Sequence record: DRR378314_251
DNA length: 64,000 nt
Reading direction: 5' to 3' (one strand)
The notes under the pieces were generated by a model. That model worked only from the letters and a program-made list of their open reading frames with translations, was not told where the DNA came from and did no database searches. The position numbers were made by a program, and so were the translations under genes. Positions 5,645-34,870 of the stretch are shown piece after piece. Each line of letters opens with the position of its first letter. The first letter of the stretch is position 1.

Positions 5645-5699
5645 GTTTTCCTCCTGGGAATGTGCCGGGCCGACAACTCGCGGCCCGGCTGGAAACGAC

Positions 5700-6269
5700 T
5701 TAGCGATGAACCAGCGACTGAACATTGCGGACAACTTCTTCCACCATTGAGTCGAAGACTTTGACCCCACGCTCGATGTCCTGATCGATCCGGCTTTGGA
5801 GGTCTGCTGTAGACTGACGGAATCGGTCTTCACTCATCCGGCCGGCCTGAAGCGACTCCTCAAGCATTTTGTACCGACGCATTTCTTCTTCGGCGAACTC
5901 AAAGCGGAACTTGAAGATATGCTCCGAGTTCCGGCGGATCGCCTCTTCGACCATGCTGACAACCTTGCTCTTGAGTTCGCCGGCACGTTCGTGATCAGCA
6001 ACCATGATCCGGCTCTTCAAATAGGTCTCATCGAGGCGCAGTTTCGACAGCACGATTGACGTACCAATCTCAATGGCCTCCTTCTGCACCTCTTTTTGAG
6101 CCTTGGCCTTCAGACGGCTCTGGTGCAGCGCAGTTCTCAAATTATCGATGACATTGATCTCATTGCTGCCCGCCGCGTCGCTGATGCTTGGCATCCTGTT
6201 GATATCCTCGCTGACGACAGGCGAATTAGCGGAGTAAGGCCGAATACGTGATGGATTGGAGTTGGACAT
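5700..6269 (-). CDS. Cytoplasmic coiled-coil hypothetical protein (189 aa)
   Basis: GGAGG RBS before ATG 6269; E/K/R/Q-rich helical sequence. Confidence 0.7.
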   Translation of the reverse strand: MSNSNPSRIRPYSANSPVVSEDINRMPSISDAAGSNEINVIDNLRTALHQSRLKAKAQKEVQKEAIEIGTSIVLSKLRLDETYLKSRIMVADHERAGELKSKVVSMVEEAIRRNSEHIFKFRFEFAEEEMRRYKMLEESLQAGRMSEDRFRQSTADLQSRIDQDIERGVKVFDSMVEEVVRNVQSLVHR

Positions 6270-6315
6270 GATGAGCCTCCTTTCTTGAGGGCTTTTGGGG
6301 GGGGAGTTGGATGGA

Positions 6316-7848: not shown

Positions 7849-7957
7849 GACACGCTCCTGACTTGCCTTTTCGTGGCTCGGTCAGACTGCGCTGGGATGA
7901 TCCATTTCCCATCACGGGTAACGTGCAGCTGAATTTTTTTAAGTCAGAAGGTTGCCG

Positions 7958-8003
7958 AAAACGTGAATTTCGTCAGAACTCATTAACAGGGGATTCACGT
8001 TTT
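7958..8003. promoter_or_regulatory. Perfect 11-bp inverted repeat in divergent promoter region
   Basis: AAAACGTGAAT (7958-7968) and ATTCACGTTTT (7993-8003), 24-nt spacer. Confidence 0.45.
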
Positions 8004-8023
8004 TGTGGATGAGCGGAGGTGTT

Positions 8024-11000: not shown

Positions 11001-11734
11001 ATCGCCGGAGAGGACTGCGCGCACTCGATCCCTCGGCACTCCGCCAGCAAAGCGGCACGGAAAGCCAGGACCCATCCGACGAAGACGTGCTACACATGTT
11101 TGCCCATGCATTTGCAACCTATGAAGTTGCTGAACTCATACGCAAAACGACATTCGAGATGTCACCATTCTCGGGCGAGCATGCTGTTTCGGGACATGCA
11201 ACGCGCGGCGCTATTCGTCTCTCTCTGATCCTGGAGCGCGAAGCCGGACGCACCCTGCCGTCAGAGGCCTTGAAAGAGCGGTATGCAGCATTGCGAGGTC
11301 CCGGCATGTTTGGTCAGTATGCGATACGCATGAAGGATGAATTGACACGAAGTCTCGGACGATTTCCCCGGGAGCGGGCCTCCATTCTCATCCTTGAAGC
11401 CGCAATGATCCGTATCATGGAAGCTCATATTTCAAACCCGGAAGAACTTCAGCGCGCCATGGGCCTGTTGCAGGAAGCCGAGAGCCTTGTTCTGGGTGTT
11501 TCAGCAACGGCACGCCTGCGCCTTCGCTTCCTGCTGGAGCGCGCAAAGCTGCATCGGCAGATTGCCCTCGTTCAGCGCAATGGATCCACAGAATTGGCAA
11601 AAAGGACATTCGATGCAAGCAAGCATGATCTTGACACGGTGGAATCGCTCTCGAGAAAGCTCAAACTGCCGCTCTGGGAAAGCATTGCTCAAATCCAGCT
11701 GCAGAAGCTTCAGAAAGTTCGCAATAGCGCTTGA
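8024..11734 (+). CDS. Large hypothetical protein with degenerate STAND/NB-ARC-like NTPase and helical C-terminus
   Basis: GGAGGT RBS, ATG 8024; R-x-E-L..L..WL, HAPTSWSGLSALA (Walker A-like, no Lys), ALIVFLGFGE (Walker B-like, no Asp), RILLLSN (sensor-1-like). Confidence 0.65.
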   Translation: MLTHEDVWEALEQAGIFQLDFTNQLDAYRAVKAKGGDNYTGHFWYEVDQNGLGMLVRLDTAGRVLEQEAARTGKQFSRLNAYEHLLAYAQKRGRKGRPGRPYDPGSPKYAFLPAQEVAQKLDGQDYDALRRPRHERNVKLQYLVIQEYAQFYCDQLQTHVRPKDSPPLSAWEFLHKPFTQKGAISAFEDWICGRAPIRTDILSAYRRIGSPDEDWDFHSQTDDRTELLDDLSSWLSKTGKSTRMLWNIHAPTSWSGLSALANHILRQDWKAGGKLLRPLCVPVILEGHRRAQFSHSQILSLLLSFTREEPHPGIVPPLPPGTDPGQVMLEIRQRLASKPALIVFLGFGERRNGVYETLRVIRDDYTISTIIPNLLEPPSRAIDGPLDLGTWRRNRILLLSNDDISNVADGRHALSDTHPELSRYREVMLKRPKITRLTDAPDDDQTAIKIIKGHNYIHGRAILSTRERRHSFWQKAISENVFRTIDALISLQGALAVDHSPSGIGMDVDRDLFAHLETLHDNTAGDDPRLEVSVRHLLTLLERHKPVWALCLKMIAETPGGLRSRTLCDLLMRFADWADDKMGATLASHLQSHLDRHERQKCAEKEIETMLDTLSPILSFGRVQDFPDLKRPAAHFGLRGARFASIAQEDLQAIEFTLPGVRDQIICALHDSKDGKDLAQLIHLLLCDESLRQHTDATVASNAWDTQITRPYRRLVQAIFHGLNALRPNDTRDGWVSPRLSGWDGIIPSDPDLLWRELYLIHFRETLERPGEWRLARVFANDQLKMELLFGFVRPWLLNWYADTPYPEDLTVFDLLASRDIVPEAVKSLMVADCQACAALNLSPKLIPDRQHSFVKQGDSNRKLDKYAADREILAANTKSAAHIWRRMLNSALPDLLTTQSLVASSSHEAQNTDDHKVFLTRRARELITLISAFAGKARDLISSKNFDTRPSFLISAEDAAVRMFLRGVSAPERRHLVNALNRRAECLAVRADRRRGLRALDPSALRQQSGTESQDPSDEDVLHMFAHAFATYEVAELIRKTTFEMSPFSGEHAVSGHATRGAIRLSLILEREAGRTLPSEALKERYAALRGPGMFGQYAIRMKDELTRSLGRFPRERASILILEAAMIRIMEAHISNPEELQRAMGLLQEAESLVLGVSATARLRLRFLLERAKLHRQIALVQRNGSTELAKRTFDASKHDLDTVESLSRKLKLPLWESIAQIQLQKLQKVRNSA

Positions 11735-11799
11735 CCCAGGAGGCCGACTTCGCTCAGCTTCGCCTTGCGAATGTGTTGCAGGATGCGTTCACCAATGCG

Positions 11800-12843
11800 C
11801 TACTCAGTTTCCTCACGGAGCCTGAAACCATTGCGAATATCCACACTGAATATCCGGGTCGGTACATCAAGGTATGCATAGACTGCTGACAAGCGTTTCC
11901 GAAATCGTATATCATTTGTGATGATCGCGTCGCACAGGCTGGCATAAGCGGCATGGGAGAGGTCAGAGTGACTGGAGATAAACTTGCCGGACCGCGAGAG
12001 TCTCTTGTCGGACTGATATCCGATGAGGTTCAGGATCAGCATCATACTCCTGACCTTGTCCGGGATAGTGTAGGGCCTGCCTGTATACGGGCTCTCTCCC
12101 TCGACATGACAAAAAGTTTCAAATGACCAGCCGCTCACCGCGTTATTCGTCAATTGGATTAGCGACCAGATCTGCTCGATCACATTGTCACCCTGAATGG
12201 AATTCAGTGCCTCAATGTCGAGCCCCAAATCTTTGCGGAAATCGACACTCGTCACCTGCCTGCCGCTTGGCTGGAGATTTGCCGCCAGGGTCTGAGCCGT
12301 CGACGAGACCGCACTGGAGGCTATGGCGATGATAGAGTCATGCAGTTGGTCGAGGAGCTCTCGGAAGTCCTCAGGCAAGTCGAACTGGTCCAACTTGTTT
12401 TTCCACGCCCTTCGCATCTCCGTCATCTGGGCAGCCGAGATGTCTTCAAACGTGCGCTCTGTCTCGCCTCCAAACAGCTTGTGAAGCATGCCCAGGCCCT
12501 GAAGGTCGGGTGAGGCCAGTAACCCTTCTCCAAGCGTTTCCTGATAGCGCTCTTGTGGACTCTCTATCCGCATTTTAAACCGACCCGTCGGCATGAACCG
12601 GTGATCCCGTTCATCGAAAACCCGCGCTGTCACGAATTTTGAGAGATTGCCGAGAAACTGAGGTGCGAGGCCTTCTGATCGCACAATCTCGTTTATGGTC
12701 TCATCGGAATATACAAGCACAACCGTGTCGCGCCATGCCTCGAAGACCTCTGACGAAATAAGCGCCTCAAGCGGCGCCCCTAATATGTTCTGATCGACAT
12801 AAATCACAGGACGTGGAAGGTCGTTTAGATTTTCTTCTGCCAT
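11800..12843 (-). CDS. PIN-like domain protein
   Basis: IYVDQNIL, YSDETINEI, SDLSHAAYA and IITND acidic PIN pattern with a large insertion. Confidence 0.65.
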   Translation of the reverse strand: MAEENLNDLPRPVIYVDQNILGAPLEALISSEVFEAWRDTVVLVYSDETINEIVRSEGLAPQFLGNLSKFVTARVFDERDHRFMPTGRFKMRIESPQERYQETLGEGLLASPDLQGLGMLHKLFGGETERTFEDISAAQMTEMRRAWKNKLDQFDLPEDFRELLDQLHDSIIAIASSAVSSTAQTLAANLQPSGRQVTSVDFRKDLGLDIEALNSIQGDNVIEQIWSLIQLTNNAVSGWSFETFCHVEGESPYTGRPYTIPDKVRSMMLILNLIGYQSDKRLSRSGKFISSHSDLSHAAYASLCDAIITNDIRFRKRLSAVYAYLDVPTRIFSVDIRNGFRLREETE

Positions 12844-13052
12844 GTTGACGGATTTAGTACCGTTTTTTTCTAGATTTCGAACCAGAAGGGTCTACGACTC
12901 TCGCAACCAGCTGATCCGACTCCGCCGGTTACAGGCTAGAAGATGTTCCCGTAGAATATCGCCAAGATGCTCGCGTGGTCCTCAGCCCCGGCAAAACAAA
13001 CTCGCGCTAACCGGGCATTGTCAGACAGGATGAAATCCTCAAGCTCCCTCGC

Positions 13053-13280
13053 TCAGGCTGCAGCACGAGGCCGCGTATGCCGGGCCGCGATCAAATGCAG
13101 AGCAGCCGCTTGCATCACCGCCTCGTCCATACCCAAAGGAACATTTTGAAGTTCAAGAGCCCGCTCTGTAAGCGTGATGGCGATCTCCGGGAACTGCGCT
13201 TTCAGCTGCGACGCAGCGATCGGCACCCTGACCGCCTCTTCATGAGTGTAGGGAAAGATGATCATCTTGGTGCCTTCCAA
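13053..13280 (-). CDS. Small hypothetical protein
   Basis: GGAAGG RBS before MIIFPY; protein-like composition. Confidence 0.45.
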   Translation of the reverse strand: MEGTKMIIFPYTHEEAVRVPIAASQLKAQFPEIAITLTERALELQNVPLGMDEAVMQAAALHLIAARHTRPRAAA

Positions 13281-13425
13281 TTGGTTGGCATTTTAGCGCG
13301 ATTCCCTTCAGAGATGGAGCTGTTTTGACCGTGTAGGTATCTGCGAAGCGGAAGTGGGATCTGCCTCGGGACTCAAATCGTGTAGGGCTTCCCGCTCTTC
13401 GTGGACCCTAGGGGAGATATTGGGC

Positions 13426-16400
13426 GTGAAGCACAATGACTTTGTAGACCTCGACCGCCGGTTCGAACCGGTTGGCGCACGCGACCGACACGAAAGCGAC
13501 GAGACAGGACTTCGCATGTTCCTGCCGGACTCGGCCTCCGGACTTGCCTGGCAGGAAGTCTTGGCATTTCGCACCGTTGTCATCCTGGGTCGTGCTGGCT
13601 CAGGCAAGACAAGGGAGCTCTTGAATCAGACACAACGCCTTTCAGAACAGGGCAAGGCCGCCTTCTATGTCAGGCTGGAGGCATTGACCAGTTCCAGTCT
13701 GGAAGAGGCCCTCGGTGAGAAAGGCGATCGCGAACCTGTCGAGCAATTCCGCAAATGGAAGCGTGGCAAGACTGAAGGATACTTTTTCCTCGATGCCCTC
13801 GATGAAGCGCGGCTACCTCGCGGACGAAACGGCATCATCCTCGATGCGGCACTTGCCGCCTTCAAGCATGCCATCGGGCCAGCCAGGAACCGGGCATCCC
13901 TCATTCTGTCTACCCGAGGAAGTGAATGGCACGACGAGACAGACAGGCCAAAACTGCAGGACATTCTTGTCTGGCTGAACCGGCAGGATGCCGCACAGTC
14001 AAAAGCGGACGGTCGTGGCCCCACCGCTACGGACACGCCAACAGACCCGGCACATCTGAAAATCCTTGCCCTGTCGCCACTTAGCCGCTCGCAGCTTGTC
14101 AAACTCGCTTCGGCACATGGTATAGAAGCTGAAAGCTTTGTCGGTGCCGTAGAGACAGCAAAGGCGGTTGTTCTGGCCCAGACACCGCTGGAAGCCCGGA
14201 TGTTGATCGATGTCTGGAAAGGCAATCTCGATGCGGGCCTGCCCGGTGCAGCCGGATTTGAAAGCCGGCGCCGGCTCTTCCAACGGGCAATCGATTATGC
14301 GCTTCGCCCGCGCCCCGATGCAGAGCGCCGTTCCGATCTCAGCCAGCCTGCTGCCATCGAAGGACTGCAAGCGCTCGCTGCAGCCTGCACATTGAGCGGA
14401 AAGCGTGACTTCGCGCTTGCTGCAGGCTATGACACCGATTGCCTCGATCCACACGCTATCCTGGGTGCGCTCAGCGATGAATGGACAGACGCCAGTATCC
14501 GCCAACTTTTCAGCTACGGCTTTTTCGATCCGGCTTCGGCCGGCCGCATTCGGTTTGCCATCAGGGAAATCCAGGACTTCCTCGCGGCCGAATTTTTCGA
14601 CCGCGCGATAGACAATCTCGGTGGCAATCTCGCCCCCCTCTCGCCTTTACTCGGTGTGTTTCTGGACCGTAGCTACGTCCCACCAGACCTTCTGAATTTT
14701 TTCGGGTGGCTTGCCACGATGAACCCCGCTGCCAGGCGGCTCGTGATCGATATTCATCCTACGCTGCTCATGGAAACCGGCGATCCTGGTCTCTATAGCA
14801 TTGACGAACGGGCAGGCGCGCTGCGCAGTCATGCAGCGCAGTACGAAACTCAGATCTTCCGGGGAGAACACTTCTACCGCGATGACCTTGAGGCCTTTGC
14901 ACATCCAGACCTTGCCCCTACCGTTGCAGACCTGCTTTCGACAGCCACGTCTCGCGAACTGCGAGAAAACCTTGTCGCGCTCGCCCAACATGGCGACATG
15001 GAAAGCCTTTCCGGTCTACTCTGCGACATTGCCTGTAATCAGAATGAAGCCCGCAGGATCAGGACGCAAGCAAATCTCGCGCTCCAGGCGTTTGGCGGGC
15101 AGGACTTGCGCGACCGTGTCCGCCGCAGCATGGATGAGGACATCGCTACCGCAGGCGAGATCGACCCCGAAGCGGCATCCACCTGGAATGGCTGGCTCCT
15201 TACAGGTCTCGGCTTCGTGGCGCCAGGCCTCAGCGCGATTGGCGACGTCGCAACCTATCTCGAACATCTCGCCCGGGAACCGAAGAATCTTGCCTCTGCC
15301 AGCGGCTATTATGCGAGTGATCTTGTCGCTGCAGCACAGGCCTCCATCCCCGGCGACTGGCTCGGCGCACTTCTCGGTCTCATTCTGGATCCAACTGCCA
15401 ATCAGAACGATCACCTGCCGGCGCCCCTGCCCGCGCGCCTTATGCTGCTCCAGCCGATATCCAATCTCGTCCTTGATGAACTAAGTACCGGCGCAAATGC
15501 GGCGCCGACCGAAGATTTCATGACGGCGATTGAACTGTTCTGCGGTCTTACGCACCGGGAGGGCAGTTTTGCCTTCTCAAAGAGTGTGAGTGAAATCGCC
15601 GACAGGCTGCGAGCCGCGTCGGACGCCAAGTTCGCTCTCATTCGGCGCCGACTTCACCTCGTGAGACCGGATCGGATCTGGTCTTATGATGCGCTCGGTC
15701 CGCTCAAACTGTCGGAACGACATGGTCAGGAGGGCCTCTGGACGACAGAAGATGTTATGCGTGCCCTCGATGAGGCCGAAACGGCGGAAACGACAGACGA
15801 AATTCGGACCTGGTATGCAATTGCCCGCGGCCTGATCTTCGAAGCAGGACCGTTGGAGCACCGGAAGTCCGTTTTCAAGCGTTTGAACCGGTTCGAGCGC
15901 AGGAGCCATGATCCTGAAATCCGGCGCTTTGCTCCAAAACGACCAGAGGCCTGGCATAGGGCAAAGTACAAATTCGTGCATGGCGGTAGCAACAGGCTCA
16001 AGCGCGCACTTGTGGACAGGATTTTTTGGCCGTGGCGGCAAGTTCACCGCGCCTGGCTCTTGCGCCAGAGCTTGCCGAAGATCCGCTCAGGGACCCATCT
16101 CAATTTTCTCCACACTTCCATGTTCGAAGCAACCCGAAATAATGAGGCCTGGAGTGTGCAATCCGTACTCCGACATATTGCTGAAACCGATGGCCGCTTG
16201 GCCCGGAGGGCGGCAGACGCCGGCTACCGCGCGGTCTGGCGGTCGTTGGACCCGTCCATTTTGACACATTCCGATGGCTGGGCCATTGCCGATGTCGCCT
16301 ATGCCGGCCTGCAGCTGGACCGGACGTCCGGCAAGCTCCTCCATGATCGAAATGAAACCGCCCGTTGGTGTACAATCGCGCTTCTCAGTGAACACTGCAA

Positions 16401-17787
16401 CCTCCCAGACCTTGCTGATTTCTATCTCCCCGCACACAATGAAGTCGTCCGGCAAACTCTTGAGGCTCCACTCCGGGCTGCGCTTGCCGCAAAGCCTCCC
16501 CCTCAGGATGGACCTCACCGGCTTATTTCTGCCCTCGCCTACGGACCCGGCCTGGTCAAAGCTGCGGCAGCGCCACTTATCGCAGACCTGCTTGCCGAAC
16601 AGCCCATCATTCCTGCCGCCGACCTTGCCTATCTGCTCCCCATCCTCGCACATGATGGCGAAGCCGGGCTGATCGGCCCGGCCTTCCTGCGTCGGCAATT
16701 TTCAGAATCCGCTGCAGAAGGCCAGTACAAAAGGGCCTGGATCTGGCTTGAGCTTCTGTTCAGGACCGATCCGGACGACGCCGTGCGAACGCTCGCCCCC
16801 TGGACACCACACGTCTGGCCGGAAGATAGGACAAGCCCGCTCATGGGTTTCATCGCTGACTTCGGCAACCTGATGAACCGGTCACGACACGATCCTGACC
16901 GACGCTCTGATGCCCTTCACGGCTCTGCTTCGGCGCTCGGCGTTCTTGTCCGACTCGCCTGGCTGATCGCGCCGCCCGAAACCGATATCCGGCACGAAGG
17001 CGTTTACTCTCCAGGCATGCGGGACAAGGCCGGTGACCAGCGCCGCCATTGGACGGACAGTCTGGTCGGGCTGGCAAATGAAGCGGGTTATCAGGAACTC
17101 ATGCGCCTCGCCGACCTCCCTGAACTGGTCGGCCAGAGAGATCTCTTCCACTATCACGCCGAACGACTTGTCCGGCTGGGAGCCAGCCGTCATCTGCCGG
17201 GAAATGATGACATTCCCCGCCTGATGTCCGGGCTCCGCTCCACTCCCCGCACCCGGGAAGAGTTTGCAACCTATGTGAACGGTATTCTGGACGGCCTCCT
17301 TGAACGGTTCGTGAACTCCAACCACGATGAGGCACGCCCCTATCGCCAGTCGGCAGGAACGCCGTCCGAGCGGGATGAGGCGGATTTCCGGAACTGGCTG
17401 AGCGCTCGGCTCGAAGAAACCGGATACGAGGTCTTTTCGGTCACGCGTGAGCCTGAGGCGGCTAGTGAAAACAGGACCGACATCCTTGTGACAGCAAGAC
17501 GTACAGACCTTGGCTGCGTGGTTATCGAAGTTAAGCTCGCGGACCGTTCACACTGGTCCGGTGACGCACTGGTAAGCACGCTCGAGACGCAGGTGCGGGA
17601 CAGATACCTGCGCGAAGCAGAAAAGCATGCGGGCACGCTGGTGCTGCTGAATACGAGAGGGCCAGCGTTCAGGAAGCGGGTTGAGGGCCGCCTTGTGGAG
17701 TTTGAGGCACTGGTTGCAGCGTGCACGGCGCGTGCCGGCTCGATTGGAGGCGACAAGCGGTACAAAGTACTCGCCCGTGAAATTTGA
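13426..17787 (+). CDS. NACHT/STAND NTPase with helical repeats and C-terminal PD-(D/E)XK nuclease (Avs/bNACHT-like defence protein)
   Basis: Walker A GRAGSGKT, Walker B YFFLDALDE, LILSTR; C-terminus E..FRNWL…RE…RTDI…VIEVK; GTG start at 13426 after GGGAG. Confidence 0.85.
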   Translation: MKHNDFVDLDRRFEPVGARDRHESDETGLRMFLPDSASGLAWQEVLAFRTVVILGRAGSGKTRELLNQTQRLSEQGKAAFYVRLEALTSSSLEEALGEKGDREPVEQFRKWKRGKTEGYFFLDALDEARLPRGRNGIILDAALAAFKHAIGPARNRASLILSTRGSEWHDETDRPKLQDILVWLNRQDAAQSKADGRGPTATDTPTDPAHLKILALSPLSRSQLVKLASAHGIEAESFVGAVETAKAVVLAQTPLEARMLIDVWKGNLDAGLPGAAGFESRRRLFQRAIDYALRPRPDAERRSDLSQPAAIEGLQALAAACTLSGKRDFALAAGYDTDCLDPHAILGALSDEWTDASIRQLFSYGFFDPASAGRIRFAIREIQDFLAAEFFDRAIDNLGGNLAPLSPLLGVFLDRSYVPPDLLNFFGWLATMNPAARRLVIDIHPTLLMETGDPGLYSIDERAGALRSHAAQYETQIFRGEHFYRDDLEAFAHPDLAPTVADLLSTATSRELRENLVALAQHGDMESLSGLLCDIACNQNEARRIRTQANLALQAFGGQDLRDRVRRSMDEDIATAGEIDPEAASTWNGWLLTGLGFVAPGLSAIGDVATYLEHLAREPKNLASASGYYASDLVAAAQASIPGDWLGALLGLILDPTANQNDHLPAPLPARLMLLQPISNLVLDELSTGANAAPTEDFMTAIELFCGLTHREGSFAFSKSVSEIADRLRAASDAKFALIRRRLHLVRPDRIWSYDALGPLKLSERHGQEGLWTTEDVMRALDEAETAETTDEIRTWYAIARGLIFEAGPLEHRKSVFKRLNRFERRSHDPEIRRFAPKRPEAWHRAKYKFVHGGSNRLKRALVDRIFWPWRQVHRAWLLRQSLPKIRSGTHLNFLHTSMFEATRNNEAWSVQSVLRHIAETDGRLARRAADAGYRAVWRSLDPSILTHSDGWAIADVAYAGLQLDRTSGKLLHDRNETARWCTIALLSEHCNLPDLADFYLPAHNEVVRQTLEAPLRAALAAKPPPQDGPHRLISALAYGPGLVKAAAAPLIADLLAEQPIIPAADLAYLLPILAHDGEAGLIGPAFLRRQFSESAAEGQYKRAWIWLELLFRTDPDDAVRTLAPWTPHVWPEDRTSPLMGFIADFGNLMNRSRHDPDRRSDALHGSASALGVLVRLAWLIAPPETDIRHEGVYSPGMRDKAGDQRRHWTDSLVGLANEAGYQELMRLADLPELVGQRDLFHYHAERLVRLGASRHLPGNDDIPRLMSGLRSTPRTREEFATYVNGILDGLLERFVNSNHDEARPYRQSAGTPSERDEADFRNWLSARLEETGYEVFSVTREPEAASENRTDILVTARRTDLGCVVIEVKLADRSHWSGDALVSTLETQVRDRYLREAEKHAGTLVLLNTRGPAFRKRVEGRLVEFEALVAACTARAGSIGGDKRYKVLAREI

Positions 17788-18420: not shown

Positions 18421-18527
18421 GTCGACAGTTCGCCCCCTGCCCACCAGGTGTGACCGCCTCTATCTCACACCCAGATCGCCTCATTCATCAATTGGCGAAC
18501 CATCTGGAACTGAAGGAAGAGATCGAT

Positions 18528-20120
18528 ATGCCTTACTCTGAACACGAACAGACCGTAAGCGGCCTTATCGCCGCCCAGAAAGGTCGCTGGGACGATATCC
18601 AACCAGAAGCCGTTGCGCGGATGCGGACACAGAATCAATTCAAGACCGGACTTGATATCGCAAAATATACGGCTCAGATCATGCGACAGGATATGGCAGC
18701 CTACGATGCTGATCCTGTAAACTACACGCAATCCCTTGGCTGCTGGCACGGCTTCGTGGGACAGCAGAAGCTGATTTCCATCAAGAAGCATTTTGGCTCG
18801 ATGAAGGGAAGATACCTATACCTTTCAGGATGGATGGTCGCCGCCATGCGTTCAGAATTCGGTCCGCTTCCAGACCAGTCCATGCATGAAAAGACAGCCG
18901 TACCGGCCCTGATCGAAGAATTGTACACCTTTTTGAAACAGGCTGATGCGCGCGAGCTTGGGACACTCTATCGCCAGATTGACGCCGCACGGGCCAGCGG
19001 AAATTCTTCCCTGGAGCAAGACCTGATGGCCCAGGTCGATTCATTCCAGACGCATGTCGTTCCCATCATTGCAGACATTGATGCCGGATTCGGCAATGCC
19101 GAAGCAACCTACCTCCTCGCCAAAAAAATGATTGAAGCGGGCGCTTGCGCCATTCAGATCGAGAACCAGGTCTCCGACGAGAAACAGTGCGGGCACCAGG
19201 ATGGCAAGGTAACGGTTCCGCACGAAGACTTCCTGCAAAAGATCCGCGCTGTACGTTACGCATTTCTGGAACTGGGTATCGAGGACGGGGTTATCGTGGC
19301 CCGGACAGATTCCCTCGGCGCGGGCCTGACCAAACAGATTGCGTATAGTCGCGCGCCTGGCGATCTCGGAGACCAATATAATGGCTTCCTGGATTGTGAT
19401 GAAATTGACCCTGGTCAGATTGGAAATGGTGACGTTCTGATCACCCGCAACGGCAAGCTTCTGAAACCCAAACGACTGCCGTCCAATCTTTATCAGTTCC
19501 GTCCTGGCACAGGTGAAGACCGGGTGGTTCTGGATTGCATCACATCATTGCAGAACGGCGCAGACCTTCTCTGGATCGAGACTGAAAAGCCGCATGTCGA
19601 GCAGATTGCCGGCATGGTTGACCAGATCAGGAAGGTCGTGCCGGATGCAAAGCTCGTTTACAACAATTCACCATCTTTCAACTGGACGCTCAATTTCCGC
19701 CAGCAGGTCTTCGACACCTGGAAATCCCGAGGCAAAGATGTCTCGGACTATGACCGCGCCAGTTTGATGAATGTCGACTATGATGAAACGGAACTTGCGG
19801 CTGAGGCCGATAACCGCATCAGGAGTTTCCAGCTTGATGGCGCTCGCCGGGCAGGCATCTTCCACCATCTGATCACTTTGCCGACCTACCACACCGCTGC
19901 ATTGTCTACCGATAATCTGGCCAAACGGTATTTCGGTGAAGAAGCGATGCTTGGCTATGTCCGGGAAGTCCAGCGTGAAGAGATCCGTCAAGGCGTGGCA
20001 TGTGTGAAGCACCAGAACATGGCCGGGTCTGACATTGGTGATGATCACAAGGAATACTTCGCCGGCGAGGCCGCCCTCAAGGCAGGTGGTAAAGACAACA
20101 CGATGAACCAGTTTTCCTGA
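18528..20120 (+). CDS. aceA: Isocitrate lyase
   Basis: YLSGW, PDQS, DIDAGFG, EKQCGHQDGKV catalytic loop, LLWIET, YNNSPSFNW. Confidence 0.97.
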   Translation: MPYSEHEQTVSGLIAAQKGRWDDIQPEAVARMRTQNQFKTGLDIAKYTAQIMRQDMAAYDADPVNYTQSLGCWHGFVGQQKLISIKKHFGSMKGRYLYLSGWMVAAMRSEFGPLPDQSMHEKTAVPALIEELYTFLKQADARELGTLYRQIDAARASGNSSLEQDLMAQVDSFQTHVVPIIADIDAGFGNAEATYLLAKKMIEAGACAIQIENQVSDEKQCGHQDGKVTVPHEDFLQKIRAVRYAFLELGIEDGVIVARTDSLGAGLTKQIAYSRAPGDLGDQYNGFLDCDEIDPGQIGNGDVLITRNGKLLKPKRLPSNLYQFRPGTGEDRVVLDCITSLQNGADLLWIETEKPHVEQIAGMVDQIRKVVPDAKLVYNNSPSFNWTLNFRQQVFDTWKSRGKDVSDYDRASLMNVDYDETELAAEADNRIRSFQLDGARRAGIFHHLITLPTYHTAALSTDNLAKRYFGEEAMLGYVREVQREEIRQGVACVKHQNMAGSDIGDDHKEYFAGEAALKAGGKDNTMNQFS

Positions 20121-27402: not shown

Positions 27403-28812
27403 ATGGTTTTCATTCGGCGGGATGTCCACAAACTGGCAGAGTGGGACGATGTTCTGCTCTGGTATTCAAAAGCAGTCGGTGCACTGCAAAACAGGCCTCT
27501 GACAGATCCGCTGGGATGGCGTTACCAGGGCGCGATTCATGGGTATTTCCGACCGGATGACCCTTTTGCGCAGGAAGGGGAAGCTCTGCCTTCTCCAGCG
27601 GAGCGGGCTCGTTTCTGGGATCAGTGCCAGCATAGCTCCTGGTATTTTCTCCCCTGGCACAGGGCCTATCTCACTTATTTCGAGCGACTGATACGCAAAA
27701 CAATCATAGACCTTGGCGGTCCGGATAATTGGGCATTGCCTTACTGGAACTACTCTGACGCGTCCAATCCGTCCGTACGCTTCCTGCCGCCTGCCTTCGT
27801 CCAGCCTCACCGGCCTGATGGCTCAGCCAACCCCCTTTTTGTCCCCCGCAATCTCGATGGGCCAGGCGGTACCAAAGCACTCACTGGGATCGAAGTCGGG
27901 GTCAATTGTTTGACATACCCAAACTTCATTGGTGTGGCATTTGGAGGAGCCCCGGGATTTGGGGGGCCGAAAACCGGTTTCAATCATGGCGGCGGATCGA
28001 TCGGTCATCTGGAATGGACACCGCATGGGACCGTTCACAACGGTGTCGGCAACTGGATGAGTTCCTTTGAAACGGCCGCGCTTGATCCGGTCTTCTGGCT
28101 GCATCATGCCAATGTGGACCGGCTCTGGGAGGTCTGGCTGGCGCGTGACAGCGGTCATGCAAATCCGGCCGATCCTGATTGGGGCGATGCCATCGGCGCT
28201 GTTTTTGAATTCCACGATGAGAACGGACACGTGGTCACCGCCCTGCCAAAGGATTTTGTCGACACGTCACAGCAGCCGATGAATTACAAGTATGAAGATA
28301 TTTCTGATCCACTGACCCCGGCTGCTGCGGCTGCAGGAGGAGGACCCATCATGCCCGGACCCGGTCCAGCGACACTTGTCGCGGCCTCCGACACCAATCT
28401 CTCACTTGGCCAGAGTGGTATGAGCGCCGACGTCCCTTCCGTCATCGGGGCCGCGGCCAGTCTCGGTGACACAGACATTTCTGACCGCCGCATCTATCTC
28501 AATGTCGAGAATGTCACCGCAGAGAGGGATGGCGGCAGTTTCGAAGTCCTGATCGGCGCCAAGGCTGCACCGGATGAAACCTACCGTTTGGCAGGCGCGC
28601 TTGTCATCTTTGGAGCACGCGTGCGCCCGGCGGCAGACGGCAGCATGCGGAGCGGTATCACGCAGATCATTGATGTGACACCTGACGATGATCTGCAGGG
28701 ATTCCTTCAGGCCTTACGGGAAGATCAGATCGAAGTTCGCTTCCGACCTCTGCGGGCAATCGCGGAGGCGGCGGATATCAAAGTGGGCCGCATCAGCTTC
28801 TATGTGGAATGA
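27403..28812 (+). CDS. Tyrosinase / polyphenol oxidase with C-terminal shielding domain
   Basis: CuA AIH…CQH…FLPWHR; CuB PHGTVH…DPVFWLHHANVDRLW; YKY motif; Ala/Gly/Pro linker; C-terminal beta domain; no signal peptide. Confidence 0.92.
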   Translation: MVFIRRDVHKLAEWDDVLLWYSKAVGALQNRPLTDPLGWRYQGAIHGYFRPDDPFAQEGEALPSPAERARFWDQCQHSSWYFLPWHRAYLTYFERLIRKTIIDLGGPDNWALPYWNYSDASNPSVRFLPPAFVQPHRPDGSANPLFVPRNLDGPGGTKALTGIEVGVNCLTYPNFIGVAFGGAPGFGGPKTGFNHGGGSIGHLEWTPHGTVHNGVGNWMSSFETAALDPVFWLHHANVDRLWEVWLARDSGHANPADPDWGDAIGAVFEFHDENGHVVTALPKDFVDTSQQPMNYKYEDISDPLTPAAAAAGGGPIMPGPGPATLVAASDTNLSLGQSGMSADVPSVIGAAASLGDTDISDRRIYLNVENVTAERDGGSFEVLIGAKAAPDETYRLAGALVIFGARVRPAADGSMRSGITQIIDVTPDDDLQGFLQALREDQIEVRFRPLRAIAEAADIKVGRISFYVE

Positions 28813-29572
28813 TCCGGATCTGCCGCGGGTCATACGTACCGGGCTCAGAACCGGGCGATTGCTCGGCCAGAGCCCGTATGCGCGCCTGATCCTTGTCCTG
28901 AGCGCATTCGCCTGGCTGGTGATCCTGCTTCCTGAGACGTCCGGAGAATGGATTGATGTGTGCCTCGGTCGCGGCGGAACAAGCCGGATCTATCTCGACC
29001 TTTCCGGATCCGACCCGCCAATTGGGCAGCATGCTGCCTTGATGAGTCTTGCCATGATGGCCCCTATCTCGCTCATATACCAGGCCAGTATCGAAGGACG
29101 TTTCACAAGTCTCTGGCGCCTGCCCGCGCGGATTGCCTTCCTCTTGCCTTATCTTGCGCTCTGGAGCCTGTTTGCGATTATCGTGAGCCATCTTCGCCTC
29201 ATGTTCATGGCCTTGGGTGCAGATCCGGTCTGGCTTCTAGTGGGCGTCACCCTTCTGGCCATGATCTGGCAGGGTACAGAGTTTAAGCGCCGGATAGATG
29301 GGCACCATCACAGGATTTTTCCTGTCCCCGCCGCCGGCCTGCCGGCACTTGAGGCGATGGTTCGCCGCGGCTTTGCCAAGGGGGCTTTGTGTCTTGCGAG
29401 CTGCGGCCCGATGATGCTGATCGCAATCCATGCAGGCCACCAGGCCGGCATCATGTTGTTGATTACCCTGCTCGCACTCATAGACCGGACCAGCTACCGG
29501 CCCAGGACCCCGGCGCTTCAATCCGGCCTCGCTCTGGCGGGTCTGAGCGGATGGATTGTGCTCACTCAATAG
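28802..29572 (+). CDS. DUF2182 metal-binding membrane protein (putative copper chaperone)
   Basis: AMMAP, YLALW, WQ…KR, CLASC, MML motifs with multiple TM segments; overlaps tyrosinase stop. Confidence 0.8.
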   Translation: MWNDPDLPRVIRTGLRTGRLLGQSPYARLILVLSAFAWLVILLPETSGEWIDVCLGRGGTSRIYLDLSGSDPPIGQHAALMSLAMMAPISLIYQASIEGRFTSLWRLPARIAFLLPYLALWSLFAIIVSHLRLMFMALGADPVWLLVGVTLLAMIWQGTEFKRRIDGHHHRIFPVPAAGLPALEAMVRRGFAKGALCLASCGPMMLIAIHAGHQAGIMLLITLLALIDRTSYRPRTPALQSGLALAGLSGWIVLTQ

Positions 29573-29588
29573 CGAAGGAGACTCGATT

Positions 29589-30965
29589 ATGGCTGACAAA
29601 ATCGGCCCGCTTCTGCGTGATGCCCTGGATCGTGAAAGCCGGACGCGGCTTTTCTCCCTGAATGAGGGCGACGCGCCGCCTGAAAGCATGGCTGAACTGT
29701 CTGAGCCAGTCCTGCCGGTCATTGCCTCAGCGCACCGGATCCGGCCTGAACCGGGCGAGCCGTTCGACCTCTATGCTGAACGCGTTCGGCGTGCCCTCGG
29801 CGATCTGACCGGCCTTGCCAGAGACATATCTCCCCTCGACAGCCAGCTTCTGATTACAGGCAACGCCGTATCCCTCGCCCTACCGGTGAGCCGTATCGAT
29901 CAACTTCAGGCCTCCAGCGCAGTCGTCCAGGTCGAGCTCGACGCGCGAATTCAGGCGGCCAGCCTGGACGATGCCATGCCGGGTGTCGGACAACCGCACT
30001 TCCAAATGGAGACCGGACTGACGGGCGCAGGGATAAGAGTTGCCCTGCTCGATTCCGGGATAGATGAAGATCACCCTCATCTTCATGTTTCAGGCGCAGT
30101 CAGTACCTGCGGTGAGCCGGTTCATCCACCCGGGCGCCATGGGACGCATTGCGCCGGATGCCTTGCTTCGCGGGACGCAGACTTCCCAGGCATCGCACCG
30201 CACATCGAGCTCTACAATGTCAAAGTGCTGGATCATCAGGGAAACGGGACACCCACCTCCATTGGTCTTGGTATTGATCGCGCCGCTGAATGGGAGGCGG
30301 ATATTGTGTCCATGTCACTTGGCTTCAATCAGCTCCCCAAATCGGCCCGGGGAGGCCATGGCTGGCTATGCGAGAATGGAACCTGCCAGCTCTGCAACAC
30401 TGTTGAAAACGCAATCGACCTCGGCATGATCATCATCATAGCCGCCGGCAATGTTCACGAGCTTGCGGAAGACCATCGCAAAAACAATCCTCTTTGGGAC
30501 GTGACAGAAATCACCTGCCCTGGTCATGCCAAGCATGCGATCACGATCGGCGCATTGACCAAGGGCATTCCGGAGCCGGCCGCGTTTTCCAGTCATGGTC
30601 CGACGCGCTATGGAGCCGAAAAGCCTGATCTTTCCGCCCCCGGTGTGAACATCACCTCGTGCGCTCCTGTGCCTCGTGATTGGCAAGGGGCGCCGCTTGC
30701 GGCGCCGAGCCGCGATCAGCTCTTCTTTCGCGAGAGTGGTACGTCCATGGCCACGCCCATGGTTGCGGGCGCTGCTGCCCTCATGCTGGAATATCTGAAG
30801 CAGCATGGCCGAACGGCCAATCAGGCAGAGATGAAGCAGATCCTGACCACCCTGTTCTGTAATCCGCTCCCTCATGATAGACTTCAGATTGGAGAAGGCC
30901 AATTAAAGCTGCCGGACAAGGCCGCGATCCCGCTGGCACCATGGCTGAAAATCCGTCGCCCCTAG
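29589..30965 (+). CDS. S8 subtilisin-like serine peptidase (cytoplasmic, with prodomain)
   Basis: Triad LLDSG, HGTHCAG, GTSMATP; AAGN oxyanion motif; AAGGAG RBS. Confidence 0.93.
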   Translation: MADKIGPLLRDALDRESRTRLFSLNEGDAPPESMAELSEPVLPVIASAHRIRPEPGEPFDLYAERVRRALGDLTGLARDISPLDSQLLITGNAVSLALPVSRIDQLQASSAVVQVELDARIQAASLDDAMPGVGQPHFQMETGLTGAGIRVALLDSGIDEDHPHLHVSGAVSTCGEPVHPPGRHGTHCAGCLASRDADFPGIAPHIELYNVKVLDHQGNGTPTSIGLGIDRAAEWEADIVSMSLGFNQLPKSARGGHGWLCENGTCQLCNTVENAIDLGMIIIIAAGNVHELAEDHRKNNPLWDVTEITCPGHAKHAITIGALTKGIPEPAAFSSHGPTRYGAEKPDLSAPGVNITSCAPVPRDWQGAPLAAPSRDQLFFRESGTSMATPMVAGAAALMLEYLKQHGRTANQAEMKQILTTLFCNPLPHDRLQIGEGQLKLPDKAAIPLAPWLKIRRP

Positions 30966-31291
30966 AGGAGCTTAAAACCCATCCCATGCCCGGCAATGGC
31001 TTCGATAAAGACCCTCACATGGTCAAAGTCTCGATCCGCAAGACCGAACGGTTGAGGGGGCTCACCTATGCTGAACGCAGAACCATGCTCGAAGCATGGA
31101 TGAACCAGCTCATAGCGGCGCTGGAAGGATATCAGGCTAAAATTTCCGCTGAGACACTCTCTCCGCTTGGCCAGTCTGTCGAAGCGCATATTCCTGAAAA
31201 ATATATCGCTGCCTTAAGCGATACGCTTGGTACCGCCTCGGTCAGCATCGATCCAATCGATACAAACAATGCCGAGCAGTCTGAGGACTGA
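30941..31291 (+). CDS. Small protein resembling the S8 prodomain (possible inhibitor)
   Basis: Overlaps S8 3' end; YAERRTML…GQSVEAHIP parallels YAERVRRAL…GNAVSLALP of the S8 N-terminus. Confidence 0.55.
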   Translation: MAENPSPLEELKTHPMPGNGFDKDPHMVKVSIRKTERLRGLTYAERRTMLEAWMNQLIAALEGYQAKISAETLSPLGQSVEAHIPEKYIAALSDTLGTASVSIDPIDTNNAEQSED

Positions 31292-31294
31292 TTG

Positions 31295-32698
31295 CTATTT
31301 GCCAATCTCTTCATCTCCGAACAGAAATGGGGCGGCAGTCCGGCGATATTCATCGCCCAGCAATTGGCGTCCGAGAGGAGGCTCTGCGCGCGCCAGGCAT
31401 TCTGACCGGTGACAAAGCCGGCAGGAAACCCCGATCGGGGTCGGTGTATCGGTCGCAACATCACGACCGTCAGCATAGACGAGACGATCTGCATGCTCGG
31501 TCCGGCAGCCGAGTGCCACAGCCCGCTCTGCAGTATGAGCCGCAAATGCGCCACCGCCCGCCATCACCGTTCGTGAGACAGACAGAAAGCGGTCGCCATC
31601 CGGCAATTCAAGCAATTGGATGACTATTTTTCCGGGTGTGCGGAACACCGAGTGTACGGACCAGAGCGGACAGGACCCGCCATGGCGCGCAAACGGAAAC
31701 CCTGACCCGTCGAGGCGTTTGGAAACATTCCCGGCCGCATCTACGCGGATAAAAAAGAAAGGCACACCTTCTGCGCCCTTTCTTTGTAACGATGTCAGCC
31801 GATGAGCGATCTGCTCAAAGCTTGATCCAAATCGGCGCATCAGAATTTCGATATCGTACCGGCATTCCTCGGCAGCCTCGAAAAATTGCCTGTAAGGCAA
31901 AAGGATCGCGCCGGCTGCATAATTACCAAGCGCCCTGCGGGCAATGAGGCGGGCATCGGATGAGAGCTCAGCAGCTCCATCAAGCACGTGATCGATTTCC
32001 TCATGGAGGCTCAGATACGCTATTTGCAAAGCGATTTGAAATACCGCAGCCGCCGGCTCCAGGGATTCATCCAGCACAAGTTCCCGCCTGTGCGGATCAT
32101 GCCGCCGAATAGCTCCGGCCATGACGTGTTTTGGCAGGTAGCGGGTTTTTATCCCGTGCCGGCTTTCCAGGAATTTCGCAAGTGCATCGCTGCCGCCATG
32201 CGCCAGGCCGATGCGCTCGGCTGATGCTTCGATCCCGGCAAAATGATTGTTCTGGCGGGCGATAAACCTGCGCGCTTCTTCGACCGGATCACCGGCTCTG
32301 GAGGTTTCTGCTTTATCGGCCAATGCAAGCTGGCTTTCGACATAAGCCCGATGCGCGCGCACAAAGGCCTCGGCAAGCCCTGGATGACCTATCGCCAGTT
32401 CCCGGGGCTCGGCGGGACCAAGATCCAGACCTGCAAATAGCGGATCCTTAAGGACGTCTTCGACACGCCGGGTCAGACCTGTGCCGCCATCGCCGATAAA
32501 GCGAGAGAGGTCGACGTCATAGATACTGGCCAGTTTCAGAAGAACGGAGGCCGTCAGCGGCCGCTGATTGCGTTCGATGAGCGCGATATAGGAGGGAGAA
32601 ATATCCAGTTCGGCCGCCATTGCAATCTGAGTCAGGCCGAGATCCCGGCGCAATCGCCGCAATCTCGGACCGACAAAGACGGCCTTCTCTCCTGACAT
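31295..32698 (-). CDS. ramB: Short-chain fatty acyl-CoA regulator (ScfR/RamB family)
   Basis: XRE HTH (GPRLRRLRR…SPSYIALIERNQRP), DAAGNVSKR, GGSCPLW, C-terminal CRLCHRSEC; next to glcB. Confidence 0.85.
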   Translation of the reverse strand: MSGEKAVFVGPRLRRLRRDLGLTQIAMAAELDISPSYIALIERNQRPLTASVLLKLASIYDVDLSRFIGDGGTGLTRRVEDVLKDPLFAGLDLGPAEPRELAIGHPGLAEAFVRAHRAYVESQLALADKAETSRAGDPVEEARRFIARQNNHFAGIEASAERIGLAHGGSDALAKFLESRHGIKTRYLPKHVMAGAIRRHDPHRRELVLDESLEPAAAVFQIALQIAYLSLHEEIDHVLDGAAELSSDARLIARRALGNYAAGAILLPYRQFFEAAEECRYDIEILMRRFGSSFEQIAHRLTSLQRKGAEGVPFFFIRVDAAGNVSKRLDGSGFPFARHGGSCPLWSVHSVFRTPGKIVIQLLELPDGDRFLSVSRTVMAGGGAFAAHTAERAVALGCRTEHADRLVYADGRDVATDTPTPIGVSCRLCHRSECLARAEPPLGRQLLGDEYRRTAAPFLFGDEEIGK

Positions 32699-32704
32699 GG
32701 GCGC

Positions 32705-34870
32705 CTAACCTTCCACCTTGTCGCGCGCCTTGGCCTCCAGCCGGAATTTGTGAAGCAGAGGTTCGGTATATCCGCTGGGCTGGTCAGCACCTTCCAGGAC
32801 AAGTGCAAGCGCCGCCCGGTAGGCGATCCCATCATAGGCTGGCGCCATCGGCCGATAATGAGGGTCGTTAGAATTCTGGGCGTCAACTTTGATCGCCATC
32901 CGCTGAAAGGCTGCTGCGACCTGGCTGCGAGTGCAGACCCCATGCCTCAGCCAGTTGGCCATATGCTGGGAAGAAATCCGCAAAGTCGCCCGGTCCTCCA
33001 TAAGGCCGACATCATCTATGTCGGGCACCTTGGAGCAGCCGACCCCCTGGTCGATCCAGCGCACAACATAGCCCAGAATTCCCTGCGCATTGTTTTCAAG
33101 CTCAGCCTCGACGTCCTGTTCCGGGTAATCCGGAGTGGCAGCAATGGGCAAGCTGAGAAGCTTATCAAGTGCCGGGACGCCTGCCTTGCTGGCCCGCTGG
33201 CGGCATTCGGTGATGTCCACATCATGATAATGGGTGGCATGAAGGGTCGCGGCCGTTGGACTGGGCACCCAGGCCGTGTTTGCGCCTGTCCCTGGATGTG
33301 CAGCTTTTTCTGCCAGCATATCCCCCATCCGGTCAGGGGCCGCCCACATGCCCTTGCCGATCTGGGCACGCCCGTCAAATCCGCATGCGAGACCAATGGC
33401 AACATTTCGGGCCTCGTAGGCGGCGATCCAGTCGGTCTTCTTCATTGCGGCTTTACGCACGACCGGTCCGGCTTCCATGGACGTATGGATTTCGTCACCT
33501 GTGCGATCAAGGAAGCCGGTATTGATGAAAACGATCCGGTCTTTGACCGCTGCAATACAAGCGGCGAGATTGGCTGATGTGCGCCGCTCCTCATCCATGA
33601 CGCCGACCTTGATCGTGTGACGGTCCAGACCCAGCACGTCTTCGACCGCATTGAACAAATCATTGGTAAAGGCGCATTCTTCAGGCCCGTGCATTTTCGG
33701 TTTCACAATATAGATCGAACCAGACGCTGAGTTCCGGCGAGACACCAGATCATGGCATGCGATCAGGCTGGTGATCAGAGCGTCGAGAATGCCTTCGGGC
33801 GCCTCACTCCCGTCTGACAGGCGCACCGCCGGCGTGGTCATCAGATGACCAACATTCCGGACCAATAAAAGGGAGCGTCCTTTCAAGACAAGATCCGGAC
33901 CGTCCGGGGATTTGTACCGCCTGTCAGGTGCAAGGGCCCGGGCGCGCATACTGCCGCCTTTTTTGAAGCGGGTTTCAAGATCCCCTTTCATGAGACCAAG
34001 CCAGACCCGATAGGCTTCGACCTTGTCTTCGGCATCTACAGCTGCCACCGAATCCTCAAAGTCGACAATGGTCGAAAGCGCGGATTCCAGAACGACATCG
34101 CTGACCCCAGCCCTGTCCTGACGACCGACTGCCGTCTTCGGATCGATGGTCATTTCAATGTGCAAGCCATGATGGCGCAGGAGGATTTCCGACGGTGCGG
34201 CCGGGTCACCATGATAGCCCGCCAAAGCGGCTGGGTCTTCCAGGGCCGGCACCAATTGGCCATTCTCGATCGAATATGCCGATACATCGGCATGCGAACC
34301 CGCAGCGAGCGGCACAGCCCTGTCGAGAAAGGCTTTGACCCACCCAATGACTCTCTCACCGCGTGCCGGGTCATATCCCGGCTTTTCACCCGGCAAATGA
34401 GCAATTGCGTCGCTCCCGTAGAGAGCGTCATAGAGAGACCCCCAGCGCGCGTTCGCGGCATTCAGGACATAGCGCGCATTGAGGACCGGTACGACGAGCT
34501 GAGGTCCGGCAAGACTGCTGAGTTCCGGGTCGACATGGCCGGTTGTAATCGAGAAGGGTTCCGGCGCCTCGACGAGATAACCGATCGATTCAAGAAATTC
34601 CCTATAGGCACTGCCATCCGTCAGGCTGGTAGAGGCGTGCCAGGCATCAATTCTCTCCTGAATCTGCTTGCGCTTGAGGAGAAGCTGCCGGTTGCGGTCC
34701 GTAAACTTTCCAAAGAGCTCTGCAAAGCCGCTCCAGAAGTCTTCTGATGTGAGTGTCAGCCCCGGCAGGATCTCTGCTTCAACAAACTGATGGAGCTGTT
34801 TGTCGACCTGAAGACCGTGCACAGGGACAAAAACTGCCAGATCAAGCATCGCGCCGGAAGCCGCCGTCAT
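32705..34870 (-). CDS. glcB: Malate synthase G
   Basis: NAANARWGSLYDALYG, DFEDS, KPKMHGP, DEERRTS, GFLDRTGDE, CSKVPD, MEDRATLRISSQ. Confidence 0.97.
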   Translation of the reverse strand: MTAASGAMLDLAVFVPVHGLQVDKQLHQFVEAEILPGLTLTSEDFWSGFAELFGKFTDRNRQLLLKRKQIQERIDAWHASTSLTDGSAYREFLESIGYLVEAPEPFSITTGHVDPELSSLAGPQLVVPVLNARYVLNAANARWGSLYDALYGSDAIAHLPGEKPGYDPARGERVIGWVKAFLDRAVPLAAGSHADVSAYSIENGQLVPALEDPAALAGYHGDPAAPSEILLRHHGLHIEMTIDPKTAVGRQDRAGVSDVVLESALSTIVDFEDSVAAVDAEDKVEAYRVWLGLMKGDLETRFKKGGSMRARALAPDRRYKSPDGPDLVLKGRSLLLVRNVGHLMTTPAVRLSDGSEAPEGILDALITSLIACHDLVSRRNSASGSIYIVKPKMHGPEECAFTNDLFNAVEDVLGLDRHTIKVGVMDEERRTSANLAACIAAVKDRIVFINTGFLDRTGDEIHTSMEAGPVVRKAAMKKTDWIAAYEARNVAIGLACGFDGRAQIGKGMWAAPDRMGDMLAEKAAHPGTGANTAWVPSPTAATLHATHYHDVDITECRQRASKAGVPALDKLLSLPIAATPDYPEQDVEAELENNAQGILGYVVRWIDQGVGCSKVPDIDDVGLMEDRATLRISSQHMANWLRHGVCTRSQVAAAFQRMAIKVDAQNSNDPHYRPMAPAYDGIAYRAALALVLEGADQPSGYTEPLLHKFRLEAKARDKVEG

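Follow-up and report, generated by a model that had tools for sequence, protein, structure and literature searches.

Positions 27403-31291 of a 64,000-nucleotide (nt) stretch of sequence record DRR378314_251 (hereafter the window, meaning the whole stretch analysed) hold four same-strand (+) open reading frames (ORFs), encoding a type-3 copper tyrosinase with a C-terminal lid, a PpoB2-type membrane copper chaperone, an S8 subtilase and a small protein that accompanies S8 enzymes of this family. The locus is probably a composite operon, in which two gene pairs conserved independently of each other, tyrosinase-PpoB2 and S8-partner, were joined in the lineage of the window. The features of the locus are as follows:

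27403..28812 (+): lid-carrying, predicted latent type-3 copper tyrosinase, 469 amino acids (aa); from Pfam, the HcTyr1 profile, Foldseek and the AlphaFold2 (AF2) model
28318..28368 (+): Pro/Ala/Gly-rich linker between core and lid, residues 306-322, candidate cleavage region; from the predicted local distance difference test (pLDDT) and homologue variability
28609..28611 (+): Phe403 codon, predicted active-site plug (placeholder) of the lid; from invariance and alignment with HcTyr1 Phe397
28802..29572 (+): PpoB2-type (DUF2182/COG5486) membrane copper chaperone, 256 aa; from Pfam PF09948, hydropathy and synteny
29574..29580 (+): Shine-Dalgarno-like GAAGGAG, 8 nt 5' of the S8 start; read from the sequence
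29589..30965 (+): S8 subtilase without signal peptide, 458 aa; from Pfam Peptidase_S8, the invariant triad and PADLOC
30941..31291 (+): small S8 partner protein, 116 aa (101 aa from the ATG at 30986), ferredoxin-like fold; from the family hidden Markov model (HMM) and AF2

The ORFs and junctions agreed with the initial annotation of this DNA, which had described four tightly linked genes with these overlaps and a 16-nt gap. The tyrosinase stop codon (TGA, 28810-28812) lies beyond the PpoB2 ATG at 28802, giving an 11-nt overlap. PpoB2 stops with TAG at 29570-29572, followed by the 16-nt gap with GAAGGAG and the S8 ATG at 29589. The S8 stop (TAG, 30963-30965) in turn overlaps the small gene, which starts with ATG at 30941 and ends at 31291, by 25 nt. 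A second possible start of the small gene at 30986 is the one chosen in database record P0241. On the grounds of the two overlaps and the gap with its Shine-Dalgarno sequence, we infer that the four genes are co-transcribed.

A hydropathy scan (19 residues) found no hydrophobic segment in the tyrosinase, the S8 or the small protein, whereas PpoB2 showed several. The earlier statement that both the tyrosinase and the protease lack signal peptides therefore agreed with the absence of a hydrophobic N-terminal segment. The protease had also been named a cytoplasmic subtilisin. That part did not stand as well, because the location was deduced and the subtilisin-like PopC is described as periplasmic and secreted without a signal peptide (PMC6434023), which makes the label unsafe.

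The first gene matched the Pfam families Tyrosinase (3.5e-33), PPO1_DWL (4.8e-5) and DUF7868 (2.7e-17, residues 323-468), and its product is divided into a core (residues 1-303), a linker (about 304-322) and a lid (323-468). A homologue search yielded 2096 proteins at E <= 0.001 among 8000 scored candidates, and the best 120 of the 2096 all combined Tyrosinase and DUF7868 and were mostly about 470-500 aa in length. All six copper-binding histidines, three for CuA and three for CuB, are present. In 35 aligned homologues, H46, H77, H86, H208, H212, the adjacent H234/H235, Cys75 and Phe403 were invariant, and the copper-site histidines of the window protein correspond to His43/78/87/211/215/238 of HcTyr1. 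These results bore out the six copper ligands and the C-terminal domain of the initial annotation.

HcTyr1 of Hahella sp. CCB MM4 (PDB 8B74) has been described with a lid over the active site, into which the placeholder Phe397 protrudes in the crystal structure (PMC11609597). The family profile of the window tyrosinase matched HcTyr1 from end to end (E 2.4e-128), and the invariant Phe403 fell on the plug residue Phe397 in the HMM alignment. The AF2 model was confident and showed two domains (pLDDT 87.4, predicted template modelling score 0.90). Foldseek matched this model to 8b74 at E 8.8e-34 (template modelling scores 0.76/0.82, 34% identity), and the next fold matches were latent apple tyrosinase, latent aurone synthase and Aspergillus pro-tyrosinase. 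The latent apple and aurone-synthase polyphenol oxidases matched in both fold and profile, including the C-terminal domain. In the linker, PAAAAAGGGPIMP (residues 306-318) was the longest low-confidence stretch of the model (pLDDT < 50), and the length and sequence of the linker region varied across the 35 homologues.

Judged from these alignments, the window tyrosinase is an HcTyr1-type, lid-plugged enzyme and is predicted to be latent, latency itself having been measured for HcTyr1 only. The zymogen part of the initial annotation is thus backed by a characterised latent relative, because the match to HcTyr1 covers the full length and Phe403 aligns with Phe397. Both enzymes share the full-length family, the six copper-binding histidines, the absence of a signal peptide, the C-terminal lid and the aligned Phe plug. 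The cleaved form of HcTyr1 is reported to be about 10-fold more active than the latent form (PMC11609597). HcTyr1 differs in that it was studied alone and that its lid was lost slowly in vitro with no protease involved, and the published account names no protease partner (PMC11609597). A C-terminal extension with a gatekeeper, the proteolytic removal of which activates the enzyme, is likewise described for vsTyr of Verrucomicrobium spinosum and for fungal and plant polyphenol oxidases (PMC10526336). However, vsTyr has a twin-arginine (Tat) signal and is said there to need no chaperone, and that account describes no adjoining cognate protease gene for vsTyr or for the fungal and plant enzymes (PMC10526336).

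The second gene matched Pfam PF09948 'Copper chaperone' at 2.4e-15 (57.4 bits against a cut-off of 28.7), and its product has several hydrophobic segments and His/Cys/Met motifs, among them HHH and CxxxC. PF09948 is named for PpoB2 of Marinomonas mediterranea, the second gene of a tyrosinase operon, which is reported to be required for copper transfer to the tyrosinase (PMC2855505). In both cases the tyrosinase gene is followed by a COG5486/PF09948 membrane protein, which passes copper in M. mediterranea (PMC2855505). The PpoB1-PpoB2 operon has two genes, whereas the window adds the S8 and its partner. By analogy with M. mediterranea, the chaperone of the window would load copper into the tyrosinase, as had been suggested for DUF2182, which is the PpoB2 family.

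The neighbourhood of the tyrosinase was compared across 13 genome loci with related tyrosinases at 33-47% identity. A PpoB2 homologue lay directly 3' of the tyrosinase in nine of the 13 (tblastn), and seven of these nine were confirmed by Pfam. One of the four loci without PpoB2, L003, ends within the tyrosinase gene. Because PpoB2 follows in 9/13 loci, tyrosinase and PpoB2 form a known, conserved pair. L003 (L003:2120-5967, -) comes from a Rhodobacteraceae metagenome-assembled genome and carries a tyrosinase relative of 42% identity, and two Trypsin_2-domain proteins (715 and 567 aa), of a protease class other than S8, are encoded divergently upstream. In Pseudoduganella sp. (L009:10019-10849), DUF7868 (4.6e-20) was found in an ORF of its own, 276 aa long and downstream of the tyrosinase match; the tyrosinase may be split or frameshifted there, or the lid may stand free.

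The third gene matched Pfam Peptidase_S8 (4.8e-43), with a prodomain-like N-terminus at about residues 38-122 and a catalytic domain at about 146-440. The triad D155/H187/S386, the oxyanion residue N288 and a Cys cluster (C261, C266, C269 and C310) were invariant in 24 homologues. The family consists of proteins of about 450 aa, 41-47% identical over about 96% of their length. The N-terminal part is considered prodomain-like because the alignment of the S8 profile with unprocessed pro-subtilisin E starts inside the propeptide. Pfam Inhibitor_I9 gave no match at E <= 0.01 for either the S8 N-terminus or the small protein. The S8 also matched the PADLOC model 'subtilase' (3.7e-30) and, weakly, IetS. 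An Atlas search with the S8 returned generic S8 clusters only, a plasmid tblastn search gave no match at 1e-40, and the 401 genomes of the class of G001 gave 0 matches at 1e-50. Database record P0001 is 100% identical to the window S8. The invariant Cys cluster lies at 30366-30518 (residues about 260-310) and consists of the motif GHGWxCxxGxCxLC and C310, and C174 and C188 are present in addition. In a protease without a signal peptide, this cluster may be a metal or redox site.

The small protein is the constant neighbour of the S8. Among 34 metagenome loci of the S8 family (L022-L055), 28 had a partner HMM match beside the S8 gene. Four of the six remaining loci end inside the S8 gene, and the other two (L032 and L048) begin inside the S8 or at most about 130 nt from its start, so each of the six lacks one flank. 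Of the 28 partners, 21 lay downstream and 3 upstream of the S8 on its own strand, and the two genes were convergent in 2 loci and divergent in 2. The adjacency of S8 and partner is therefore kept while the orientation changes. The partner family comprised 244 representatives at 50% identity, mostly of about 105-120 aa. Ten clusters were checked by name; apart from one evident mislabel they were called 'hypothetical', and several members were unnamed.

No Pfam family was found for the small protein. Its AF2 model (pLDDT 74) showed a beta-alpha-beta-beta-alpha-beta order and a ferredoxin-like fold. Its structural matches were generic ferredoxin folds (Z 7-8.7); the propeptide of pro-subtilisin E (Z 6.8) and the LicP prodomain (Z 6.9) were tied with many unrelated chains. 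In hhalign, the small protein and the S8 N-terminus gave a weak, collinear match (probability 32%, E 5e-4, 81 columns). Prediction of a complex of the two scored 0.17 against a mark of 0.34, which carries no weight either way. Foldseek gave no match to the model at E <= 0.001, the profile gave no match below E 1 among PDB sequences, and a word-based homologue search found only a variant of the same protein. The initial annotation had taken this protein for a propeptide-like restraint on the S8. Its place beside the S8 in 28/34 loci and the order of its strands and helices, which S8 prodomains also have, are in line with a putative inhibitor. In record P0241, the small protein starts at Met16 and has a differing C-terminus that corresponds to the other reading frame of the window at 31226-31291. 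A 1-nt difference there would remove the last conserved strand of the partner family and could be an assembly error or a real variant. P0241 and the S8 record P0001 are listed with one and the same length of longest contig, 3516122 bp.

By architecture and description, the second pair resembles PopC and PopD of Myxococcus xanthus. PopC is reported as a subtilisin-like protease of 50.8 kDa whose N-terminal part is unannotated and which lacks a signal peptide, and PopD, encoded in the same operon, joins PopC in a complex and prevents its release until PopD is broken down on starvation (PMC6434023, PMC4320627). Both pairs combine an S8 protease that lacks a signal peptide and is extended at its N-terminus with a small adjoining gene. 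They differ in that PopC acts on CsgA p25 and not on a tyrosinase, and in that the role of PopD is to control secretion (PMC6434023, PMC4320627). An ESM Atlas search with the small protein placed it near hypothetical clusters, and rank 10 was a 'PopD domain-containing' cluster (score 0.91, 146/256 features), which is a lead.

The two pairs were seldom found together. The 13 tyrosinase loci contained 0 S8 and 0 small-protein matches, and the 34 S8 loci contained 0 tyrosinase and 0 PpoB2 matches, so neither family needs the other. Moreover, five genomes with related tyrosinases had no S8 orthologue, the best match being a distant paralogue (E 3.9e-25, 654-aa frame). A tyrosinase search of the 401 genomes of the family of G001 gave 4 matches at 1e-30, none of them close. 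The conserved tyrosinase-S8 linkage on which the initial annotation had staked its proposal was accordingly absent from these loci. Meanwhile, the best hits for the tyrosinase (P0121, 66% identity) and for the S8 (P0002, 61%) both come from JGI, and for each the longest contig recorded is one of 4193 bp, just enough for the four genes. The two very probably share one contig, and the linkage would then be kept in one diverged relative. Thus, the union is mostly not conserved, being seen at the window and, very probably, in this one relative. In a tree of 34 S8 family members, the window S8 and P0002 grouped with 100/100 support, and a branch of 1.44 set them off from the 32 others.

The S8 pair was found beside other genes instead; neighbour ORFs were called with a longest-ORF script, which yields some antisense artefacts in DNA rich in guanine and cytosine (GC). 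A Dyp-type peroxidase-like gene lay directly upstream of the S8 on the same strand in three of the 34 loci (L026, L030 and L036), preceded in each by a shared 421-487-aa protein of no known family, and L036 had an additional Ferritin-like PF12902 protein. This recurrent cassette (421-487-aa unknown, Dyp-type peroxidase-like, S8, partner) was located as follows:

L026:3512-7698
L030:2497-7049
L036:883-7715

These three loci fall in two separate supported S8 clades. In the near-identical L032, L034 and L035, the genes after the S8 encode an unknown protein of 441 aa, a CHAT protease and an AAA_16 protein, and in L037 a TPR-CHAT protein is encoded upstream of the S8. In other S8 loci a second S8 or unknowns adjoin, and the neighbours are highly varied. 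Among the neighbour proteins, PADLOC weakly matched two CHAT proteins (SAVED_CHAT; TPR/BovA) and assigned a second S8 to 'subtilase', and none of 30 neighbour proteins matched its gasdermin model. A fixed protease-partner core with changing neighbours would fit a portable regulatory or activating module.

Taken together, these observations suggest the following working of the locus. The tyrosinase would fold with its C-terminal lid over the di-copper site and with Phe403 as plug, the membrane protein PpoB2 would supply copper, and full activity would need loss of the lid at the disordered linker. The partner, a ferredoxin-fold protein of about 112 aa, would most likely bind and hold the S8 until it is itself removed, by analogy with PopC and PopD. 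The two pairs would be co-transcribed in the lineage of the window, and their co-expression without obligatory cleavage by the S8 is rated somewhat more likely than a dedicated activation step.

Several points weigh against this reading. The likeness to PopC and PopD (PopD is Pfam PF27478) is an analogy backed by no alignment. The union of the pairs was apparently kept over substantial divergence (66%/61%), which argues for a functional tie, and the long-branch 100/100 clade of the window S8 and P0002 is what would be expected after specialisation. In addition, the Dyp-type genes before the S8 pair in 3/34 loci hint at a recurring tie to oxidative enzymes.

The last three of these points favour a dedicated activation cascade, in which the small protein holds the S8 inactive until it is removed on a signal, the S8 cuts the linker, the Phe403 plug leaves and quinone or melanin synthesis starts. 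Such a cascade would also accord with a latent, lid-plugged enzyme with a disordered linker, with an active-looking protease encoded translationally close behind the tyrosinase pair, and with the activation of lidded fungal and plant tyrosinases by external proteases (PMC11609597; PMC10526336). However, it has to contend with the 0/13 and 0/34 cross-linkage and with HcTyr1, which sheds its lid without a protease (PMC11609597). PopC-type proteases, moreover, can leave the cytoplasm despite having no signal peptide (PMC6434023). The decisive step, cleavage of the linker by the S8, is favoured by local gene order only, while the independence of the pairs and the protease-free processing of HcTyr1 count against it. 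We therefore regard it as doubtful that the S8 cuts the tyrosinase lid, and the cascade as a whole as a tentative proposal. Of the cascade in the initial annotation, the predicted latency, the copper chaperone and the small partner gained support, but its tyrosinase-S8 linkage was not conserved and the lid loss of HcTyr1 was protease-free. The anti-phage 'melanisation' added to it found no direct support, and our findings do not bear on phage defence or on an intracellular site.

It is rather unlikely that the pairs are simply unrelated neighbours, the S8 pair being a PopC/PopD-like regulated, exported protease that has targets of its own and no more than a promoter or an insertion site in common with the tyrosinase pair. 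Elsewhere each pair manages on its own, the neighbours of the S8 pair are highly varied and PopC acts outside the cell (PMC6434023), all of which would be expected of such neighbours, whereas the tight packing, the Shine-Dalgarno sequence in the 16-nt gap and the probable retention of the arrangement in a diverged relative would not. We consider it unlikely that a PopC/PopD-like switch was captured to gate a lid-plugged tyrosinase and that the S8 pair is in general a portable activator of latent oxidative enzymes, the Dyp-type peroxidase-like proteins included.

A protease-triggered defence or suicide module, in which infection or stress would be sensed by the S8 pair and the tyrosinase set free as a toxic effector, much as proteases set free bacterial gasdermins, is highly improbable: the PADLOC matches of the S8, the CHAT proteases and AAA_16 ATPase beside the pair in 4/34 loci, a TCAD9 domain gene 2.7 kb upstream, the variable neighbours around a fixed core that are described as a trait of conflict systems (PMC7159879) and the protease-and-inhibited-effector logic known for gasdermins (bioRxiv 10.1101/2021.06.07.447441) speak for it, but the tyrosinase, PpoB2 and the small protein had no PADLOC match, the 30 neighbour proteins had no gasdermin match, the S8 had no plasmid match at 1e-40, the four genes have no integrase, tRNA or strong compositional break, and most tyrosinases of the family sit among metabolic genes. 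Tyrosinase, peroxidase and TCAD9 are nowhere mentioned in the accessible text of the conflict-systems paper (PMC7159879).

Around the composite operon, the window carries isocitrate lyase (18450-20120, +) on one side and an ScfR-type regulator with malate synthase G (31295-34870, -) on the other. These genes flank an 11-kb, mostly unannotated block with the four genes at its end, and this block may be an insertion into a glyoxylate-shunt neighbourhood. Neither a tRNA nor a strong GC break was found in the window. The segment 20951-24713 (+) encodes a protein of 714 aa to which Pfam assigned no family and, beyond a gap of 13 nt, one of 534 aa that combines a TCAD9 domain (3.4e-25) with an APH/kinase-like domain. 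These two genes lie about 2.7 kb upstream of the tyrosinase and resemble part of a conflict-type system. Further upstream, minus-strand genes encode a CdiA-CT RNase A-domain protein (4236-4910) and a DUF4407 protein (6316-7848). Two giant ORFs within 4236-17787, of 1243 and 1477 aa, matched no Pfam family, and the second gave faint NACHT/STAND hints only (E about 0.05).

In marine metagenome run X2, pieces of 151-200 nt that were at least 99% alike lay within 28030-31513 of the window and covered the tyrosinase, PpoB2, the S8, the S8/small-gene junction and ScfR. They indicate that this organism, or one nearly identical to it, is present in seawater data at low depth, as it also is in one probable source run. 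No RNA run was among the sequencing runs listed, and these matches are no independent evidence of conservation or expression. In the literature searched on tyrosinase-subtilisin operons, PpoB2 and S8 anti-phage systems, no description of the four-gene set was found.

In the prophenoloxidase cascade of arthropods, a latent type-3 copper oxidase is switched on by a protease, which is itself restrained by an inhibitor. Serpins there restrain clip-domain S1 proteases, and prophenoloxidase is of the hemocyanin type and is cut near its N-terminus. The window has an S8 protease, a ferredoxin-fold partner and a C-terminal lid instead, so the likeness is one of analogy, not membership. If the proposed cascade were true, the locus would represent a counterpart of the arthropod system that evolved independently in bacteria. 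If the link is co-expression only, the locus amounts to an ordinary melanin operon beside a PopCD-like pair. The partner family, compact (244 clusters), constantly linked to one S8 family and found beside enzymes as varied as Dyp-type peroxidase-like and CHAT proteins, merits follow-up. The locus brings a candidate protease and a candidate inhibitor into one operon with a lid-carrying tyrosinase, and lid activation in the cell thereby becomes testable with three purified proteins.

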